Below are positions 1 to 6,111 of a stretch of 6,111 bases of DNA, in pieces. The notes beneath the pieces were generated by a model. The model made no database searches, had not been told where the DNA came from, and saw only the letters and a list, made by a program, of their open reading frames with translations. This DNA is from a virus (lineage: Duplodnaviria > Heunggongvirae > Uroviricota > Caudoviricetes), in the IMG/VR virus record IMGVR_UViG_2609459846_000008. One strand, written 5' to 3'. Numbering within the stretch: the first letter of the stretch is position 1; each line of letters opens with the position of its first letter. Both the position numbers and the translations under genes were made by a program.

Positions 1-275
1 AACCGCTCCGGCTTCTTCCAGTGGTAAGTAATTTTTTCTTTCTCCTGGTACATCTCCACGCGGCGACGATATGACAACAACTCCAGAACTCTGGTGCGTA
101 TATTGCGTATATCCACGCCGTTAAGCTCGATACCGTCACGGCGCATCACCTCAGCCACCACACGCGCGTAATTTTCGGCTATCACGCTGTCCGGCTGCGT
201 GGCCTCCTGTTTGCCTGCTTCCTGGCTGATTCCGGTAACGCGACGGATTATTTTTAGTAGTTCGGTTTCGCTCAT
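1..275 (-). CDS. Hypothetical protein, N-terminal 91 codons only; gene continues beyond the window start
   Basis: ATG at 275..273 lies 5 nt after the large-terminase stop (283..281). The frame stays open for 91 codons to position 3 (MSETELLKIIRRVTGISQEAGKQEATQPDSVIAENYARVVAEVMRRDGIELNGVDIRNIRTRVLELLSYRRRVEMYQEKEKITYHWKKPER...). It is absent from the ORF track only because no stop falls inside the window. I recognise no family. Confidence 0.45.
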   Translation of the reverse strand, partial: MSETELLKIIRRVTGISQEAGKQEATQPDSVIAENYARVVAEVMRRDGIELNGVDIRNIRTRVLELLSYRRRVEMYQEKEKITYHWKKPER

Positions 276-280
276 TCTCG

Positions 281-1942
281 TCATACCCCATCAAACGCCG
301 CAAGCCGCTCTTTGTGGCTGTCGCTCATATCAAATGCAAATTCCTCATGTTCTGCCTGGAATGTGCCAAACGCCATCAGAGCCGCAACGCTCGGGTCTAT
401 CTTGTTGGATGATTTTTTCTTGTTCGGCTTGATATTGGCGTTCGCGTCACTCTGCATCACAACATTACTCATTGACCAGGCCAGCACCGGATCGCCACGA
501 TGCACAATCACCTTCCGGTTAACAAAAACTTCGAACGATTTCGCCGCCGGACTGAAACGAAGGTATGTTTGCGGGAACGGCTCCACCTCAAATCCTGCCC
601 CCTGTAGCTGCGTCCTCAGGTGCGTGGCGTTCCATGTATCGAAGCCCACCAGCCTGATATTGAAATTCTCTGCATCCGCCATGATGTCATCACGGATACG
701 GTCATAATCAATGCAGTCACCCGGTGTTGTGCGTATCCAGCCCACCTTTACCCACTGGCGATAGATGGCGCGGTTTTTATTGGCGGGGGTCTGTAGCTGA
801 AATTCAGGCAGATAGTGACGGGAAACCAGCATAATCTTTTTACCGACCGGAAAGGCATAGCACACGCTGGAAATATCGCTGGTTGATGATAAGTCCAGCC
901 CCGCGTAGCACTCCTGCCCGTATAAATCCGCCTCCGCGAACGTTCCGGCGCACTCCGCCCATGCACCGTTACCCATCCACGGCGTAGCCCCCTGACACCA
1001 GATATTGAATCGCTTGGTGAGCATTTCCACCCACTGCGACGGAATACCCCGCGCTTTCTGGATGGTTGAGGCCAGTTTTTCACGATCGACGGAAACATCG
1101 ATATTGGGATTCGCCTTTATCCACATCGCCGGATCGTCAACCTCGCTTTCATCATCCAGCTCGTAAATCAGCACGAACATGGATTCGTTCACCTCTTCAC
1201 CATCCAGTATCTGGCAGCAATAGTCATAGTGTTGTTTACAGGCTGAAACAACGTTGCTCCCCGATGTGGTGATGGCAAATAACAGCCCCTCCGGACGCGC
1301 CCCCATTCCCAGTTCAAGCGCGGAATAAACCCCGTTGTCAGGGTGCAGGTGATATTCATCCACAATGGCAAGACTCGGGTTTGTACCTTCAATGGTTGCC
1401 GCTTTTGCTGCCAGTGGCTTTAACAGGCTGTTGGTTTTCGGGTGTATCACCTTGTGTGCCTGAATATTTACCCGCTTTCGTAACGGTCGGGATAAAAGGC
1501 ACATCTGACGCGCATCATCAAACACGATCCGCGCCTGATCACGACTCACGGCGGCGGTGTAAATATCCTGCTGCCCGTTTTCCATAACCAGAAACCAGTT
1601 AGCCAGGATAGCGGCGACCGTGGATTTGGCATTTTTTCGCGGCACTTCAATGAATGCGCTGGTGTATTTGCGCCGTCCGGTGGCCTTAACCTTAAAGCCC
1701 AGGATGCACGCAAAGGCGAACTGCTGCCACGGCTCCAGCTCAATGGGGCTACCGCGCATTGCGCCTTTTACGTGCGGACACACCCTGGAAAAGGCAATAA
1801 ACCGCTCCACGACCTCCGGATCGAACGTGTAAAGGGGGTTTTCAAGGTCAGAAAAATACCGTTTAACGGCCTGTTTCAGTCGTTTACAGGCCGTAATTTT
1901 GCTGTTTTTTACGCCTTCTGCGTACTCATGCCAGGCGGTCAA
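281..1942 (-). CDS. terL: Phage terminase large subunit (Terminase_1-like ATPase/nuclease)
   Basis: 553-aa ORF with a P-loop-like motif (FIEVPRKNAKST), a Walker-B-like LAIVDEYH and a long C-terminal nuclease-sized region; overall resemblance to large terminases of HK97/lambda-like phages. The start codon at 1942 is TTG (plus strand reads caa), preceded by AGAGGA 5 nt upstream. It overlaps the small-terminase stop by 17 nt. Confidence 0.88.
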   Translation of the reverse strand: MTAWHEYAEGVKNSKITACKRLKQAVKRYFSDLENPLYTFDPEVVERFIAFSRVCPHVKGAMRGSPIELEPWQQFAFACILGFKVKATGRRKYTSAFIEVPRKNAKSTVAAILANWFLVMENGQQDIYTAAVSRDQARIVFDDARQMCLLSRPLRKRVNIQAHKVIHPKTNSLLKPLAAKAATIEGTNPSLAIVDEYHLHPDNGVYSALELGMGARPEGLLFAITTSGSNVVSACKQHYDYCCQILDGEEVNESMFVLIYELDDESEVDDPAMWIKANPNIDVSVDREKLASTIQKARGIPSQWVEMLTKRFNIWCQGATPWMGNGAWAECAGTFAEADLYGQECYAGLDLSSTSDISSVCYAFPVGKKIMLVSRHYLPEFQLQTPANKNRAIYRQWVKVGWIRTTPGDCIDYDRIRDDIMADAENFNIRLVGFDTWNATHLRTQLQGAGFEVEPFPQTYLRFSPAAKSFEVFVNRKVIVHRGDPVLAWSMSNVVMQSDANANIKPNKKKSSNKIDPSVAALMAFGTFQAEHEEFAFDMSDSHKERLAAFDGV

Positions 1943-2282
1943 GCTCGTCCTCTTCCTCTGTTTCCGGTGGATTTCTGCGGCGACTTACCGGGTCAAAACC
2001 CAGCAAAGAAGCCATTTTGATCATTATTCTTTCAGCGTCAGCCTTTGCGCTCAGGGCGGGGTTTCTGCTCTCGCTGCCCTGACTGTTAACAATGCTGAAC
2101 CCGCGCGTGGCAAGGTCTTCGACGGCTTTGCGGTATATGGAGTAGTTAACGCAATACAGCTCCAGATTGCTCCAGTCGGCGGGGGTAAGGTCTTCCCGTC
2201 CGGAAAGCTGGCGCGATTTTTCCTTCCACTGCCTGACCGCGATTTCATCCAGGTAAGCGGGGGCTTTTGGTGGTCTTGCCAT
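1926..2282 (-). CDS. terS: Phage terminase small subunit, P27 family
   Basis: Translation from the internal ATG at 2282 begins MARPPKAPAYLDE... and carries the P27-family core (LTPADWSNLELYCVNYSIYRKAVEDL ... NPALSAKADAERIMIKMASLLGFDP). The ORF-track start at 2423 adds 47 residues that do not resemble TerS, so 2282 is preferred. This is shorter than a typical P27 TerS. Confidence 0.75.
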   Translation of the reverse strand: MARPPKAPAYLDEIAVRQWKEKSRQLSGREDLTPADWSNLELYCVNYSIYRKAVEDLATRGFSIVNSQGSESRNPALSAKADAERIMIKMASLLGFDPVSRRRNPPETEEEDELDRLA

Positions 2283-2570
2283 GTTCTTTTTTCGCCCAAT
2301 TATTTTCAAAAAAATTCCCGTGCACAAAAATTTGAGGAGGCGGTCGGTGTCCGGCAGGGACGGTTTCGTCCTGAAAACCACCCCCACCCCCTCTGACGGC
2401 CTCACCAGCGATTGCGAAAACATTCCATGACCTCGCGGTCACGGTCGGTTAATTGCTTCGCTGTGGTGCGTTCTGTGCGCCCTGTCCTGTTGGCTTTGTG
2501 CCCTGTCTCCTGTGTCTTCCATAAGTCACGCTGCCTTATCAGTCCACGTATCAGCCTGGTTTGCTCCTGT
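2283..2570. promoter_or_regulatory. HNH-TerS intergenic region; candidate cos / terminase-recognition region with possible promoter
   Basis: About 290 bp between the HNH stop and the preferred TerS start. Contains CTGT-rich imperfect direct repeats (2461..2516), a G-tract on the minus strand (plus ccacccccacccc, 2379..2391), a small hairpin (ggacg-gttt-cgtcc, 2358..2371) and an AT-rich block (2286..2335). On the minus strand that block holds a possible sigma70-like pair: -35 TTGTGC (2327..2322), 17-bp spacer, -10 AATAAT (2304..2299). In HK97-like phages cos lies between the HNH and terS genes. Confidence 0.3.
2461..2516. repeat. Imperfect direct repeats built on a CTGT core
   Basis: CTGT occurs six times in 53 bp. 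Two about 17-bp copies, tgtgcgccctgtcctgt (2474..2490) and tgtgccctgtctcctgt (2497..2513), sit 23 bp apart. Confidence 0.4.
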
Positions 2571-3011
2571 TCAGTCATCATCGCCATACATCCAGTCGTT
2601 ACGGTGTGCTGCCCGTTCTTCCTGCTCGCGATACATGCCCGCCTTACGGTTCGCTTTCGTGGCTGGATCTTCCCGTGTCGTCTTACGGTTGTGGCACGTC
2701 TGGCACAATGCCTGGTGGTTCCACTCAGGCCAGAAGAGAACATCACCGCCGCCATTGATGGGGATGATGTGATCCACCACAAGAGCTGGCGTATAAATCC
2801 CCTTAGCCAGACAACGCACGCATAACGGGTTTTTGCTCAGGTACAGGGCGCGGTATTTGTCCCACTGTCGGGAATACCCGCGCGCGCGGCGGTGTCCCCG
2901 TCTGGCATCCTCTGCACGCCATACAGCCCGTCTGTGCTCTTCACACTTGCCGGACTTCACGCGCTTATTACAGCCCGGCTCAGTGCATCGCCTTAATGGT
3001 TGCCACGGCAT
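2571..3011 (-). CDS. Phage-associated HNH endonuclease
   Basis: 146-aa ORF with ATG at 3011..3009. Cys-rich N-terminus (CTEPGCNKRVKSGKCEEH) and a canonical HNH core (VVDHIIPINGGG ... NHQALCQTCHNRKT). Its start overlaps the upstream connector-gene stop (TGATG). Confidence 0.88.
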   Translation of the reverse strand: MPWQPLRRCTEPGCNKRVKSGKCEEHRRAVWRAEDARRGHRRARGYSRQWDKYRALYLSKNPLCVRCLAKGIYTPALVVDHIIPINGGGDVLFWPEWNHQALCQTCHNRKTTREDPATKANRKAGMYREQEERAAHRNDWMYGDDD

Positions 3012-3313
3012 CAGTACACCCCCACATCACGATAAACCGACCAGAGCGCAGAAATAGCCATAGGCAGTTCAGACTGCTCCACTGGTGAAACTGCTTCCCT
3101 GTTCTCGTACAGGAAAGCGATGTACATCAGGCAACCAACACGCATTGCCGGGGTAAATTCCAGCCCGTCTTCAAAACGTTTCCCGATATGCTTCTGGCAG
3201 GCTTCCAGCGCCGCATCGGTATACATTTTCAGAAGTTCGCCTTCACCGGATAAATCATCATCAAGTCGAAGATGTGCCCTGACTTCATCAGGTGTAATTC
3301 TGGCTTCACTCAT
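3011..3313 (-). CDS. gp6-like head-tail connector protein
   Basis: Translation from the ATG at 3313 (MSEARITPDEVRAHLRLDDD...FLYENREA..., about 100 aa) matches the size and the characteristic N-terminal E-x-x-R-A-H-L-R-L-D motif of HK97 gp6-like connector proteins. GGGAG Shine-Dalgarno 6-7 nt upstream. The ORF-track start at 3376 is GTG and adds 21 residues with no support. Overlaps the portal stop by 8 nt. Confidence 0.7.
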   Translation of the reverse strand: MSEARITPDEVRAHLRLDDDLSGEGELLKMYTDAALEACQKHIGKRFEDGLEFTPAMRVGCLMYIAFLYENREAVSPVEQSELPMAISALWSVYRDVGVY

Positions 3314-4520
3314 CTTTTCTCCCTTTAATTTCCACAGTCTGTTTCCATGCCTGGCTGAACTCATCACCACCTTCACGCGGCGGCATACCCTCGCGTTCGC
3401 GAGCTTCGTTCGGATTCATGATCCCGCTCTTAATCCCTTTCTCATACGTGGCATAACGTTCGGTGGGTGTGGCGCGCAGTAAATCGGCTGAATCAAACTC
3501 AACCAGATAACGGGTACCAGGTACGGGAGAAGTCACCAGCAAAGCGGCCTTGATTTGCTGTTCGAAGTTCGCCAGCCACGGGCGCATTGTCATGGTCAGA
3601 AATGCGCGGCTCGCCTCACTGAAATTGCTGTAGGTGCTGTTGCTGTATTCCTGAAGAAAAATCGGCGACACGTTGAACATCCTGGCGATGTCTTCAATGG
3701 AGAAGCGACGGGAGGCCAGCCATTCCGCATCCTGGTTACTCATCCCCAGCTGCCTGTAATCCATGCCCCCTTCAAGGATTGGCGTTTTTCCGGCATTTTT
3801 CGCCCCCTTGTAGCGTTCCAGTGCGTCTAATGCCTGTTTACCTTTCACGCCGTCCAGCCATTCACCTGACGTGATAATCCCTGCCGCCATCATGCCATCT
3901 TTCATAATGCTGGCTCCGTGACGCTGTTGAGCAAGGCCAAGCCCCAGCGCCTCACGGCAAATCGTGACGGGGGAACGCCCCAGAAAGCCATCATCCGAGG
4001 CATAGCGGAGATGCAGAACTTCTTCCTGTAAATACGTGCGCACCGTTCCTGTACAGGGTTCGGTGATGGTATAGCGGTATTTGTGTGTGCCTGTGCGTTC
4101 CGGTACAACACACCCCGGCGCATAAGGATGAAGTGATTTTGGCTGCCCGTCCCGCCCCCACTCAATAACCGCATAGGCGTTACCGTTCAGCAGGCAGTGA
4201 CGCATCATTGTGCGTTTAAACTGGTAAGGTGTCAGGCACGAATTAGGCTGCTCATTCAGCAGAATATCTACCGGGTGACTGTCCAGCCATTCCCGCGCCT
4301 CTCTGCCCTTATCATTGCGTACCAGATACAGGTAACACGGCATCGTGGCCACCGCCTCAGCGATGACAGAAACCGCGTTCATCACAGCAGGCAATGATTC
4401 AGCCGTCCCGGCAGAAACATATTCTCCGGATCCGGTATTTGGTACACCAGACAACGCCAGAAAATCATCAATGGACAGGTTACGCAGATCGCTTTTTTTA
4501 CGACTAAAAGGCCACCACAT
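3306..4520 (-). CDS. Phage portal protein, HK97 family
   Basis: About 404 aa from the ATG at 4520 (MWWPFSRK...). Carries portal hallmarks: LLNGNAYA, VLHLRYASDDGFLGRSPV, RRFSIEDIARMFNVSPIFL, RPWLANFEQ. The ORF-track start at 4610 is TTG and overlaps the protease C-terminus out of frame. Protease stop and portal start are arranged TGA-T-ATG. Confidence 0.9.
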   Translation of the reverse strand: MWWPFSRKKSDLRNLSIDDFLALSGVPNTGSGEYVSAGTAESLPAVMNAVSVIAEAVATMPCYLYLVRNDKGREAREWLDSHPVDILLNEQPNSCLTPYQFKRTMMRHCLLNGNAYAVIEWGRDGQPKSLHPYAPGCVVPERTGTHKYRYTITEPCTGTVRTYLQEEVLHLRYASDDGFLGRSPVTICREALGLGLAQQRHGASIMKDGMMAAGIITSGEWLDGVKGKQALDALERYKGAKNAGKTPILEGGMDYRQLGMSNQDAEWLASRRFSIEDIARMFNVSPIFLQEYSNSTYSNFSEASRAFLTMTMRPWLANFEQQIKAALLVTSPVPGTRYLVEFDSADLLRATPTERYATYEKGIKSGIMNPNEAREREGMPPREGGDEFSQAWKQTVEIKGRKDE

Positions 4521-4521
4521 A

Positions 4522-5082
4522 TCACAACCCCGCCAGTTCAGCCCAGCGATGACGATTATTTCCTGCCGGGCGTAATTCAGGGTACTGTGCAAACAACGAA
4601 CGGTGGGCAATCTCCACGCCGGATTCGGGATAAGCAGGCATCGATGTTATCGTGATTTCACGGAGTTCTGCTGCGGTTACAGTACGCAGATACGGTTTTT
4701 GCGCGATATTCCACTCCTCGCATAATGCGCGAAAGCCAAAGCTCATTCCTGTAATATCGCCACGTTCCACCAGCGTAAGCACATCTTTTCCAAGCTGGGT
4801 ATTTGGCGGTGTCAGTTCAAAACGTAGCCCGGTGTTATCCTCAGTCAGTACCAGTGAGCCGGATTTGGTACGCCCCAGCAGTCGGGTATAGTCATGCTCA
4901 TACAGACAGCGCACATCATTACCTGCCGCCAGATAGTCAGCAAAAGCCCCCGGCGTGAACTGTTCGCGAAACTCGTCCCAGATAATTTCTGAAAGGCTGT
5001 TCCAGCGAACGGCATAACCCACCAGTTTTTTATCGCTGGCGGTCAGTTCAGATGTACGGATTTCAAAATCGGTGTTTTTCAT
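4522..5082 (-). CDS. Prohead (head maturation) protease, HK97 family
   Basis: 186 aa from the ATG at 5082 with GGAG 8 nt upstream. Matches the HK97 protease pattern: FEIRT ... VGYAVRWN ... FTPGAF ... DVRCLYEHD ... LLGRT ... GLRFEL ... VERGDITGMSFGF ... AYPESGVEIAHRS. The ORF-track start at 5307 is TTG inside the upstream capsid gene. Confidence 0.85.
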   Translation of the reverse strand: MKNTDFEIRTSELTASDKKLVGYAVRWNSLSEIIWDEFREQFTPGAFADYLAAGNDVRCLYEHDYTRLLGRTKSGSLVLTEDNTGLRFELTPPNTQLGKDVLTLVERGDITGMSFGFRALCEEWNIAQKPYLRTVTAAELREITITSMPAYPESGVEIAHRSLFAQYPELRPAGNNRHRWAELAGL

Positions 5083-5102
5083 CGGTGTACTCCATAAAGC
5101 TG

Positions 5103-5123
5103 AAAAAGGAGGCCGAAGCCCCC
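5103..5123 (-). terminator. Rho-independent terminator candidate between capsid and protease genes
   Basis: Minus-strand RNA reads GGGGGC-UUCG-GCCUCC followed by UUUUU: a 6-bp GC-rich stem (one G-U pair), a UUCG tetraloop and a U5 tract. It starts 8 nt after the capsid stop (5134..5132) and sits about 20 nt before the protease start. Confidence 0.5.
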
Positions 5124-5131
5124 TTTGCTCA

Positions 5132-5747
5132 TTACTTGCCAGCCTGAATTTCCAGAATCTTGATGGCGTTCGAATCCACCACACCACCGCCCAGATATTT
5201 CTGGGTATAGATGTTAATGAATCCAGGCTCGCTGAAATCCGGACGGGTACGCGTACCGGTTTTATGGTCAACGATGAAATAACCGCGCTTAAAGTCACCG
5301 ACTGCAATCACACCGTCCGGCATAAATTCCAGATATTCAACCGGAAGCCCCAGCAGAGAATCAGGATCACCAGCCTGTAAACGATCGCGCCAGATGTAAT
5401 CACCAGTGGCATTTTTCAGTTTTTGTGCGGAGGCGGCTGTATTTGAGTTCATCACCCATACAGCTTTTTTGCGGTACTTATTGCGCAGCGTAAATTTCAG
5501 GTCAATCAGCATATCGGCGCTGAGACTGCCAGTCACTTTTTTCGTCTGGAGCGTACCGAAAGGACGGGTTTTGTCATTATCCGTAGTGCGCGGGAAAGTC
5601 AGGAAACCTTTGGCTTTTTTCTCGCCATCACCGGAAACCAGATCCGTTTCTTCGGTATCAACGAAAGTGTCGCCAATTTCAGAAGATAACCAGCCCATAA
5701 TATCGACTTCGGAAAAATCGATAATTTCCTGAGTGGTTTTCGGGTAA
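5132..5747 (-). pseudogene. Major capsid protein (HK97 family), C-terminal roughly 200 aa; 5' end removed by IS insertion
   Basis: The frame is open from 5761 down to the stop at 5134..5132. Motifs align to the C-terminal half of the HK97 capsid protein: LVSGDGEKKAKGF (compare LLNGDGTGDNLEGL), LLGLPVEYLEFMP (compare MWGLPVVPT), AVGDFKRGYFIVDHKTG. The upstream end runs into non-coding, repeat-rich IS terminal sequence, and a full-length capsid protein would be about 350-400 aa. The 5' boundary is approximate. Confidence 0.7.
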
Positions 5748-6111
5748 GTGCGTATTCCGCTCTATTCGATCACGGATTGGCATCGAAGTCCGATCAGCGA
5801 TTCGCATCCATTCGATCAACCGGGAACTTAACTTTTTCTACCGCTTTTTAACGCGTTTTTTCGCTGCTTTCCACTACCGGGGGATTTTTCCTCAGTGACT
5901 CTCCCTGAAGGACCACCCGGTGTGAGTTATGTACCAGTCTGTCCAGGATGGCATCTGCTGTTGTTGGGTTCTCCATCAGACCATGCCATTTATCTACCGG
6001 GAACTGACTTACCACTATCGTGCTGCTTTGTCCGTAACGATCCTCTATGAGCTCCAGAAGGTCATTACACTGGGCGTTACTTAACTGTTCCAGCCCCAGA
6101 TCGTCCAGGAT
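5748..6111 (-). mobile_element. IS21-family insertion sequence, terminal part (continues beyond window end)
   Basis: 3' end of an istB-like gene followed by about 100 bp of non-coding sequence with short iterated motifs: attcgatca (5764..5772 and 5810..5818), cgatca (x3), gatt[g/c]gcatc (5775..5785 and 5799..5809). Multiple terminal repeats are typical of IS21-family ends. The capsid frame is cut off here. The boundary is approximate (about 5730-5765), and the tg at 5748-5749 would fit the family's TG...CA ends. Confidence 0.6.
5848..6111 (-). CDS. istB: IstB-like transposition helper ATPase (IS21 family), C-terminal 87 codons
   Basis: Minus-strand translation from the window edge: ILDDLGLEQLSNAQCNDLLELIEDRYGQSSTIVVSQFPVDKWHGLMENPTTADAILDRLVHNSHRVVLQGESLRKNPPVVESSEKTR, stop at 5850..5848. 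Walker-B-like ILDDLG and the ILDRLVHNSH...GESLRK tail are characteristic of IstB/DnaC-type AAA+ proteins. Missing from the ORF track because the start lies outside the window. Confidence 0.75.
   Translation of the reverse strand: MLDDLGLEQLSNAQCNDLLELIEDRYGQSSTIVVSQFPVDKWHGLMENPTTADAILDRLVHNSHRVVLQGESLRKNPPVVESSEKTR

Follow-up and report, generated by a model that had tools for sequence, protein, structure and literature searches.

A Capsid and Packaging Operon in Escherichia coli yifB That Probably Belongs to a Capsid-forming PICI

We assign the window (the whole stretch of DNA that was analysed, 6,111 nt) with a probability of about 0.93 to the late operon (capsid and packaging genes) of an E. 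coli capsid-forming PICI (cf-PICI) that lies in yifB and is a close relative of EcCIEDL933, the prototype cf-PICI of E. coli O157:H7 EDL933 (Alqurainy et al., bioRxiv 10.1101/2022.09.08.507074). The EcCIEDL933 sequence was taken from that strain for comparison. A sequence-only reading of the window had left a choice between an undescribed module architecture and the cassette of a capsid-forming PICI. The genes on the flank and the EcCIEDL933 gene order, with proteins 56–94% identical, bear out the second option; the first falls away, the order being a published, conserved organization (10.1101/2022.09.08.507074; 10.1101/2025.02.11.637232). In proteobacterial cf-PICIs, the order capsid-protease-portal-head connectors, hnh-terS-terL is conserved (10.1101/2022.09.08.507074) and differs from that of the helper phage (10.1101/2022.09.08.507074; 10.1101/2025.02.11.637232). 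The same order in a well-described phage group had been named as evidence against novelty, and the proteobacterial cf-PICIs provide it. Because this is the textbook layout of a known satellite family, described in 2022–2023 and present in about one E. coli genome in ten, the gene order is of little importance and the finding is an ordinary one. Compact head genes ahead of HNH-TerS-TerL are to be taken as a signature of a cf-PICI, not of a phage.

Gene content of the window and its interrupted capsid gene

The features of the window are as follows.

1–275, minus strand: small conserved gene after TerL, first 91 of 94 codons; no assigned function
281–1942, minus strand: large terminase TerL, 553 aa; Pfam TerL_nuclease 3.8e-52, TerL_ATPase 4.3e-26
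1926–2282, minus strand: small terminase TerS, P27 family, 118 aa, with the RefSeq start; Pfam Terminase_4 4.2e-23
2283–2401, minus strand: non-coding gap of 119 nt separating the 61-aa ORF from terS; putative cos region
2402–2587, minus strand: 61-aa ORF between HNH and TerS, a RefSeq CDS; phrog_3173 9.2e-28
2571–3011, minus strand: HNH endonuclease, 146 aa; Pfam HNH 8.8e-10
3011–3313, minus strand: gp6-like head-tail connector (Ad1), 100 aa; Pfam Phage_connect_1 4e-05
3306–4520, minus strand: portal protein, 404 aa; Pfam Phage_portal 2e-91
4522–5082, minus strand: HK97-family prohead serine protease (S78), 186 aa; Pfam Peptidase_S78 2.1e-44
5103–5126, minus strand: terminator-like hairpin directly 3' of the capsid stop
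5132–5748, minus strand: 3' fragment (codons 177–381) of an HK97-fold major capsid gene, a pseudogene; Pfam 7.7e-43
5742–5748, no strand: target-site duplication GGGTAAG, 7 bp, from comparison of the IS-free and IS-bearing loci at both junctions
5749–6111, minus strand: end of an IS21-family element, with the 3' part of istB at 5848–6111; Pfam IstB_IS21 3.3e-22

Every gene is on the minus strand, and the coding-strand order is capsid, protease, portal, gp6-like connector, HNH, 61-aa ORF, TerS, TerL. The seven family assignments made from sequence alone were all upheld by Pfam profile search, as was the order; the products of 4522–5082 and 5132–5761, which might have been reassigned, remain an S78 protease and an HK97-family capsid protein. 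The connector also matches PHROG 40, "head-tail adaptor Ad1" (1.8e-28). The 61-aa ORF (2402–2587), the 94-aa ORF (1–275), and the IS had not been described in that reading. The 94-aa gene closes the late operon of the satellite and corresponds to the RefSeq CDS at 11991–12275 in the locus of an intact relative; it matches phrog_1561 (7.9e-50) and has no match in a Pfam scan. By consecutive numbering from the capsid gene of EcCIEDL933, gene 1786 (10.1101/2025.02.11.637232), the 61-aa ORF would be the homologue of "gene 1792," an assignment that the EcCIEDL933 gene order fits. In published experiments, mutating this hypothetical gene 1792 caused a severe drop in transfer.

The junctions between these genes, which had been described correctly, are closely coupled. 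Read from the sequence, the protease and portal genes meet at TGA-T-ATG, portal and connector overlap by 8 nt (ATGAGTGA), connector and HNH overlap by 1 nt (TGATG), and overlaps of 17 nt occur between HNH and the 61-aa ORF and between TerS and TerL. Longer ORF versions of TerS (165 aa), portal (434 aa), protease (261 aa), and connector (121 aa) were rejected in favour of the RefSeq starts because it is the latter that yield coupled junctions. The longer TerS ORF, which would extend up to 2423, is probably not in use, since a 1-base indel upstream of 2282 relative to EcCIEDL933 breaks its frame.

The terminator previously placed after the capsid gene corresponds to a GC-rich hairpin at 5103–5126, AAAGGGGGC-UUCG-GCCUCCUUU followed by Us, which folds at −17.7 kcal/mol (z = −2.37). 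A hairpin and U-run occupy the equivalent spot in five related elements, with differing stem sequences, and EcCIEDL933 likewise has a hairpin after its capsid gene. A simple consensus terminator scan did not report the hairpin because its stem runs into the T-run and the tail rule of the scan fails. We retain it as terminator-like rather than as a proven terminator.

The capsid gene itself is disrupted. The intact gene has 381 codons, and an IS21-family element, beginning at 5749, has inserted in codon 177; EcCIEDL933 has no such insertion. What had been read as a capsid gene at 5132–5761 is therefore only the 3' 205 codons, and the proposed start at 5761 falls within the IS end. The fragment covers positions 77–279 of the 280 in the Pfam Phage_capsid profile, RefSeq labels it "incomplete, missing N-terminus," and the 5' part of the gene is on the other side of the IS. 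The IS, 2,639 bp with terminal TG..., is no part of the satellite: RefSeq annotates it as "IS21-like element ISSso4 family helper ATPase IstB" plus istA, and among the best matches listed in other genomes, alignments end at 5748. A short apparent capsid gene beside an IS end is thus to be read as a disrupted gene. Because the IS splits the capsid gene, this copy of the island probably makes no heads and is an immobilised satellite, and EcCIEDL933 capsid mutants wholly lost transfer in published experiments. Capsid protein could, however, be supplied in trans by another cf-PICI.

The 381-aa capsid protein of the intact relative matches PDB 9gyi, the solved capsid protein of EcCIEDL933, at 3.8e-184. 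The residues singled out in that protein, D257, K290, D295, E319, and R345 (10.1101/2025.02.11.637232), are all present in the 9gyi sequence. Next among solved relatives come the capsid protein Rcc01687 of Rhodobacter and another, related capsid chain of the HK97 family, at about 2–3e-47.

The island in yifB and its relation to EcCIEDL933

E. coli E203449 matches the window at 99.9% identity, and 517 genomes contain 80% or more of it. Both in E203449 and in the intact relative, these genes make up the right half of an island of ~14.6 kb in yifB, which lies between the two halves of that gene; in E203449 the IS adds 2,646 bp, bringing the island to about 17.2 kb. Imperfect direct repeats at 11289–11347 and 25868–25926 of the intact relative's locus bound about 14.6 kb. 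Upstream of the late operon, the island carries int, AlpA, an Icd-like gene, DUF4222, a D5-type primase, SSB, and ProQ/FinO. By Pfam, the products encoded outside the window include a tyrosine-type integrase (Phage_integrase 1.3e-16, Arm-DNA-bind_3 5.7e-18), AlpA (PF05930, 2.7e-18), and a primase of D5 type (D5_N, Pox_D5, DUF5906). No tail or lysis product is annotated among the 23 genes of the intact relative's island or in the E203449 island, and the small unnamed island ORFs have no tail or holin match in Pfam or PHROG. The 14.6 kb are fully occupied, leaving no space for a tail module. The flanks thus answer the question, raised by the sequence-only reading, of tail and lysis genes versus integrase, alpA, and primase.

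The island has several of the properties described for cf-PICIs. These elements are about 10–18 kb in size and att-bounded in the chromosome (10.1101/2025.02.11.637232), and the island spans about 14.6 kb between att-like repeats in the intact relative. It contains integrase, regulation (AlpA), and replication (primase) modules, it has neither lysis genes nor a tail module, and the window follows the proteobacterial gene order. Packaging proteins of cf-PICIs are 50–90% similar to those of EcCIEDL933 (10.1101/2022.09.08.507074) and less than 40% similar to phage homologues in the literature; the pairwise identities here are 56–94% with EcCIEDL933 and, for TerL, 37% with full-size phages. Seven of the eight cf-PICI head and packaging genes were detected, the second head-tail gene being absent and the capsid gene of the window a fragment. 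The island carries 10 of the 11 SatelliteFinder core components, with PF05521 missing, which would correspond to "Type B"; the SatelliteFinder study still counts Type B as cfPICI.

In its overall layout the island resembles EcCIEDL933. Both begin with int, alpA, an Icd-like gene, DUF4222, primase, and SSB, and both continue on the same strand with capsid, protease, portal, gp6-like connector, HNH, an ORF of ~60 aa, TerS, TerL, and an ORF of ~94 aa. Identity is highest for TerL (94%), AlpA (90%), TerS (88%), Int and HNH (84% each), and portal (80%), followed by the 61-aa ORF (78%), the 94-aa ORF (77%), capsid (74%), protease (61%), and connector (56%). The two elements differ in location, EcCIEDL933 lying between phoQ and roxA and this island in yifB, and in their primases, which for most of their length are of different types, 604 aa of D5 type here and 710 aa of DUF927 type in EcCIEDL933, with only 145 residues that align.

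For EcCIEDL933 only, experiments have shown that a helper phage induces the island, that its small T=4 capsids consist of island proteins, and that nothing but tails is used from the helper; we take induction, capsid formation, and tail use over from it by analogy. By that analogy, a helper prophage would activate AlpA, and the island would excise and replicate with its own primase. The operon running from capsid through protease, portal, connector, HNH, and ORF to TerS and TerL would build small T=4 HK97-fold heads; HNH, TerS, and TerL would cut and package island DNA at the island's own cos; and the filled heads would then join helper-phage tails.

Phages, classical PICIs, and other readings of the gene order

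In HK97-type phages, HNH adjoins TerS, with the presumed cos between them. HNH of this element also adjoins TerS with a presumed cos between, and the ends of the vB_KppS-Ant record are consistent with the HK97-type arrangement. The gene families are likewise common to those HK97-like cos phages whose packaging requires HNH (for example HK97 and the helper HK106): P27-family TerS, TerL, portal, S78 protease, HK97-fold capsid, gp6-like connector, and HNH. The head-gene block, however, is upstream of HNH here and downstream of TerL in HK97-like phages, and its internal order is capsid-protease-portal here and portal-protease-capsid there. The element differs further in having no tail, lysis, or immunity genes and in its size, about 14.6 kb compared with about 40 kb. 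With no tail or lysis genes and an order other than TerS-TerL-portal-protease-capsid, it does not qualify as an HK97-like temperate phage or as a prophage of that kind, whether complete or cryptic.

Classical E. coli PICIs (EcCICFT073, EcCIED1a) resemble the island in their int-alpA-primase left half and their att-flanked chromosomal integration, and the literature describes the int-alpA-primase half as shared between cf-PICIs and PICIs. Classical PICIs lack portal, TerL, and head-tail connector and use helper capsid proteins, whereas all three genes are present here, and the SatelliteFinder model for PICIs treats them as "forbidden components"; the element is thus not a classical PICI. A gene transfer agent, brought to mind by the Rhodobacter capsid protein among the next solved relatives, was rejected, as the integrase, att sites, own terminase, cos-type layout, and absence of tail genes argue otherwise.

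It is very improbable that the island is not a satellite but a decayed HK97-like prophage remnant, stripped of tail and lysis genes and with its gene order scrambled. The IS insertion and broken capsid gene of this copy would fit such decay, and phage homologues exist for all of the head genes, but the IS aside, all ORFs are intact and tightly coupled. The compact layout recurs in hundreds of genomes, at four att sites and with differing integrases; the same order is found in islands at three further sites in E. coli, in an element of Pasteurella, and in one obtained from an induced prophage. The last of these, a relative of this island, came from an induced lysate in the form of a linear genome of 16.5 kb. 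The int-alpA-primase module is of PICI type, with its AlpA close to that of EcCIEDL933.

Still less probable is a new, undescribed head and packaging architecture of a tailed phage. The order is truly rearranged compared with that of HK97-like phages, the overlaps at the junctions are native, and the full-size phages with the nearest TerL keep TerL at the left genome end, its canonical place. That order, however, is already in print for proteobacterial cf-PICIs and is found in EcCIEDL933 itself, and the element is 14.6 kb without tail or lysis genes. In the phage collection, the close records are satellite-size ones plus one 106-kb record only; TerL identity is 69–83% in satellite-like records, 37% in the nearest full-size phage, and at most 37% in any full-size phage of the collection.

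Least probable of all is an assembly or scanning artefact in which mis-joined contigs produced the order, for which nothing speaks except that the order is unusual: collinear matches to at least 80% of the window's satellite part occur in 528 complete genomes, the order is repeated in independent assemblies, and the overlapping stop and start codons uphold the earlier view that the junctions are native.

The putative cos site and the missing head-completion gene

If the cf-PICI assignment is correct, cos is probably located in the 119-nt gap upstream of terS (2283–2401). The stretch that holds this gap (2270–2420) is conserved in EcCIEDL933, with 92% mean column identity. The related 16.5-kb vB_KppS-Ant linear record ends ...GGTTTTCAGGAC, aligned to window position 2368, and restarts 22 nt ahead of terS; the placement is based on this one deposited record, whose ends may be arbitrary.

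A head-completion gene (PF05521) is kept between portal and connector in EcCIEDL933, the GN02050 island, Pasteurella Pmp8, and vB_KppS-Ant, but is absent from the lineage of this island. A tblastn search with the EcCIEDL933 protein gave no hit to a hidden or divergent copy in the island, and Pfam and PHROG scans of its small ORFs found no replacement. The 94-aa and 61-aa ORFs were ruled out as replacements because EcCIEDL933 also has both. We tentatively suggest that PF05521-less elements, if mobile, might borrow the head-completion protein of the helper or might manage with the gp6-like adaptor alone. In the first case, dependency on the helper would be deeper than "only steals tails"; in the second, the adaptor alone would seal the head and dock the tail. 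The variant may also be no more than a Type B form already catalogued by SatelliteFinder. The portal-connector junction without PF05521 occurs in 143 of 5,426 complete E. coli genomes, and the ORFs of this sublineage are intact at two or more att sites.

Gene order and its relatives

ORF listing and Pfam scans of the window reveal one gene array, all on the minus strand.

Genes of the window
5132-5748, minus: HK97-family capsid fragment (Pfam Phage_capsid, 7.7e-43)
4522-5082, minus: S78 prohead protease (Pfam, 2.1e-44)
3306-4520, minus: portal (Pfam, 2e-91)
3011-3313, minus: gp6-like connector (Phage_connect_1, 4e-05; PHROG Ad1, 1.8e-28)
2571-3011, minus: HNH endonuclease (Pfam, 8.8e-10)
2402-2587, minus: 61-aa ORF (phrog_3173)
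1926-2282, minus: P27-family TerS (Pfam, 4.2e-23)
281-1942, minus: TerL (Pfam, 3.8e-52 and 4.3e-26)
1-275, minus: 94-aa ORF, start only (phrog_1561; no Pfam family)

Except for the truncation of the capsid gene, the scans and ORF listing bear out the capsid-protease-portal-connector-HNH-TerS-TerL order of the sequence-only reading, and the junctions it quoted (TGA-T-ATG; overlaps of 8, 1, and 17 nt) can all be read in the sequence. That reading had weighed an undescribed module architecture against the cassette of a capsid-forming phage-inducible chromosomal island (cf-PICI). The first proposal is refuted, as the gene order is already known from the cf-PICI literature and from EcCIEDL933, the prototype from an EDL933 genome. 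This cf-PICI organization differs from that of the helper phage (10.1101/2022.09.08.507074), and later identification criteria pair the same gene order with a length of 10-18 kb, the presence of integrase, replication, and regulation modules, and the absence of lysis and tail modules (10.1101/2025.02.11.637232). According to the SatelliteFinder study, the cfPICI organization is "very conserved," and 13% of Enterobacteriaceae genomes contain a cfPICI.

The second proposal is right, as the flanks show. In the intact relative, E. coli NCCP 13717, and in E. coli E203449, yifB (between maoP and ilvL) is interrupted by an island whose right half is this array. In its intact form the island spans ~14.6 kb between imperfect direct repeats at both ends and begins, in the direction of transcription, with a tyrosine integrase and AlpA (PF05930, 2.7e-18), followed by small ORFs, including an Icd-like protein and DUF4222, then a D5-type primase, SSB, and ProQ/FinO, and finally capsid through TerL and the 94-aa ORF. 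No tail or lysis genes are present in the island of either genome, nor is there room for any.

EcCIEDL933 has this layout too, and protein identities between it and the window's element range from 56% to 94% (TerL 94%, AlpA 90%, TerS 88%, HNH 84%, Int 84%, portal 80%, capsid 74%, protease 61%, connector 56%). The replication genes differ: EcCIEDL933 encodes a 710-aa DUF927 protein (L003, the EcCIEDL933 locus, 19581-21713), whereas the window's island encodes a 604-aa D5_N/Pox_D5/DUF5906 protein (L001, the NCCP 13717 locus, 20312-22126), and the two align over 145 residues only (88%). Set against the conserved packaging half, this difference points to an exchange of modules in the left half. 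The intact capsid protein matches PDB 9gyi at 3.8e-184. We infer that 9gyi is the EcCIEDL933 capsid protein because its sequence contains, in exact agreement, all five residues named for that protein, D257, K290, D295, E319, and R345 (10.1101/2025.02.11.637232).

The same order occurs in E. coli islands adjoining tRNA-Ile and downstream of fis, in the 15.3-kb "Pasteurella phage Pmp8" (OR544139.1), and in the 16.5-kb "vB_KppS-Ant" (LR881103.1, "Escherichia phage"), recovered from an induced prophage. The latter two records have an integrase, a primase, and the cf-PICI head and packaging order with no tail module, and appear to be cf-PICIs submitted under phage names. In vB_KppS-Ant, TerL is followed by a 2.3-kb gene with a tape measure annotation, which seems doubtful. 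In the phage collection, the only close records are satellite-size ones and one 106-kb Klebsiella record; TerL identity drops from 69-83% in these to 37% in the next, in agreement with the <40% given for phage homologues in the cf-PICI paper. The 94-aa gene after TerL also occurs in EcCIEDL933, and on its own it matches many other E. coli genomes at 82-91% DNA identity, one copy adjoining a "DUF1441 family protein."

An insertion sequence in the capsid gene

The capsid gene had been read as whole, with a start at 5761, but it is only a fragment: of the 280 positions in the Phage_capsid profile, the match spans 77-279. E203449, to which the window is 99.9% identical, is the sole genome among the best 25 listed with a match running past 5748. 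The capsid gene of E203449 is annotated as two pseudogene fragments, with an IS21-family element (istA and istB; RefSeq: ISSso4 family) between them. Set beside the uninterrupted locus, the interrupted one shows an element of 2,639 bp with TG...CA ends (L002, the E203449 locus, 17749-20387) in codon 177 of the 381-codon gene; the insertion duplicated 7 bp of target, GGGTAAG (window 5742-5748). Window 5749-6111 is IS DNA, and the proposed start falls within it. The element on its own has matches in 655 genomes.

The insertion also cuts off the remaining operon from whatever is upstream of the capsid gene. In EcCIEDL933, mutants of packaging genes other than gene 1792 lost transfer completely (10.1101/2022.09.08.507074); because the capsid mutant is among them, this copy, with its split capsid gene, is by analogy most likely immobile.

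Predicted mode of action and putative cos site

The intact island most likely works as in the EcCIEDL933 experiments. A helper prophage would turn on alpA, and the island would then excise and replicate. The late operon would give small T=4 heads from the capsid, protease, and portal that the island itself encodes; HNH, TerS, and TerL would package island DNA from its own cos, and tails made by the helper would attach through the connector proteins.

The cos site probably lies just upstream of terS, in a conserved, G-rich, non-coding gap of 119 nt (window 2283-2401); over the aligned stretch 2270-2420, gap included, identity to EcCIEDL933 is 92%. In the linear vB_KppS-Ant record, the sequence stops at a point that aligns to window 2368 and resumes 22 nt ahead of terS, which is suggestive of a cos here rather than proof. 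The neighboring 61-aa ORF corresponds to EcCIEDL933 gene 1792, since consecutive numbering counts on from the capsid gene, 1786 (10.1101/2025.02.11.637232). Mutation of hypothetical gene 1792 caused a severe transfer defect (10.1101/2022.09.08.507074).

Head-completion gene and post-capsid hairpin

In EcCIEDL933, the GN02050 island, Pmp8, and vB_KppS-Ant, portal and connector are separated by a ~112-aa gene, which in EcCIEDL933 codes for a head completion protein (PF05521, 7.3e-23; L003 14310-14648). The window's lineage, unlike EcCIEDL933, does not have this gene, and portal overlaps connector directly (window 3306-3313). A tblastn search of the island for a head-completion gene gave no match, nor did Pfam scans of its small ORFs. 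Of 5,426 complete E. coli genomes, 143 have the direct portal-connector junction and 355 the EDL933-type gene, and the layout without the gene also occurs at another site with another integrase. Having 10 of the 11 components, the element would be Type B in SatelliteFinder terms; elements of this type are often functional in its authors' view.

The proposed terminator after the capsid gene is borne out by folding as a terminator-like GC hairpin and U-run directly 3' of the stop codon (window 5103-5126), though the consensus terminator scan of the window did not list it. Five relatives, one from Pasteurella, have an equivalent hairpin.

Post-capsid hairpins in relatives
L003 (EcCIEDL933): 16431-16472
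L004 (Pmp8): 13654-13707
L005 (vB_KppS-Ant): 3048-3101
L006 (related element): 15023-15079
L007 (related element): 11500-11550

The position is the same and the stem sequences differ; the feature is therefore positionally conserved, consistent with a conserved, perhaps partial, terminator that raises capsid expression over that of the downstream genes.
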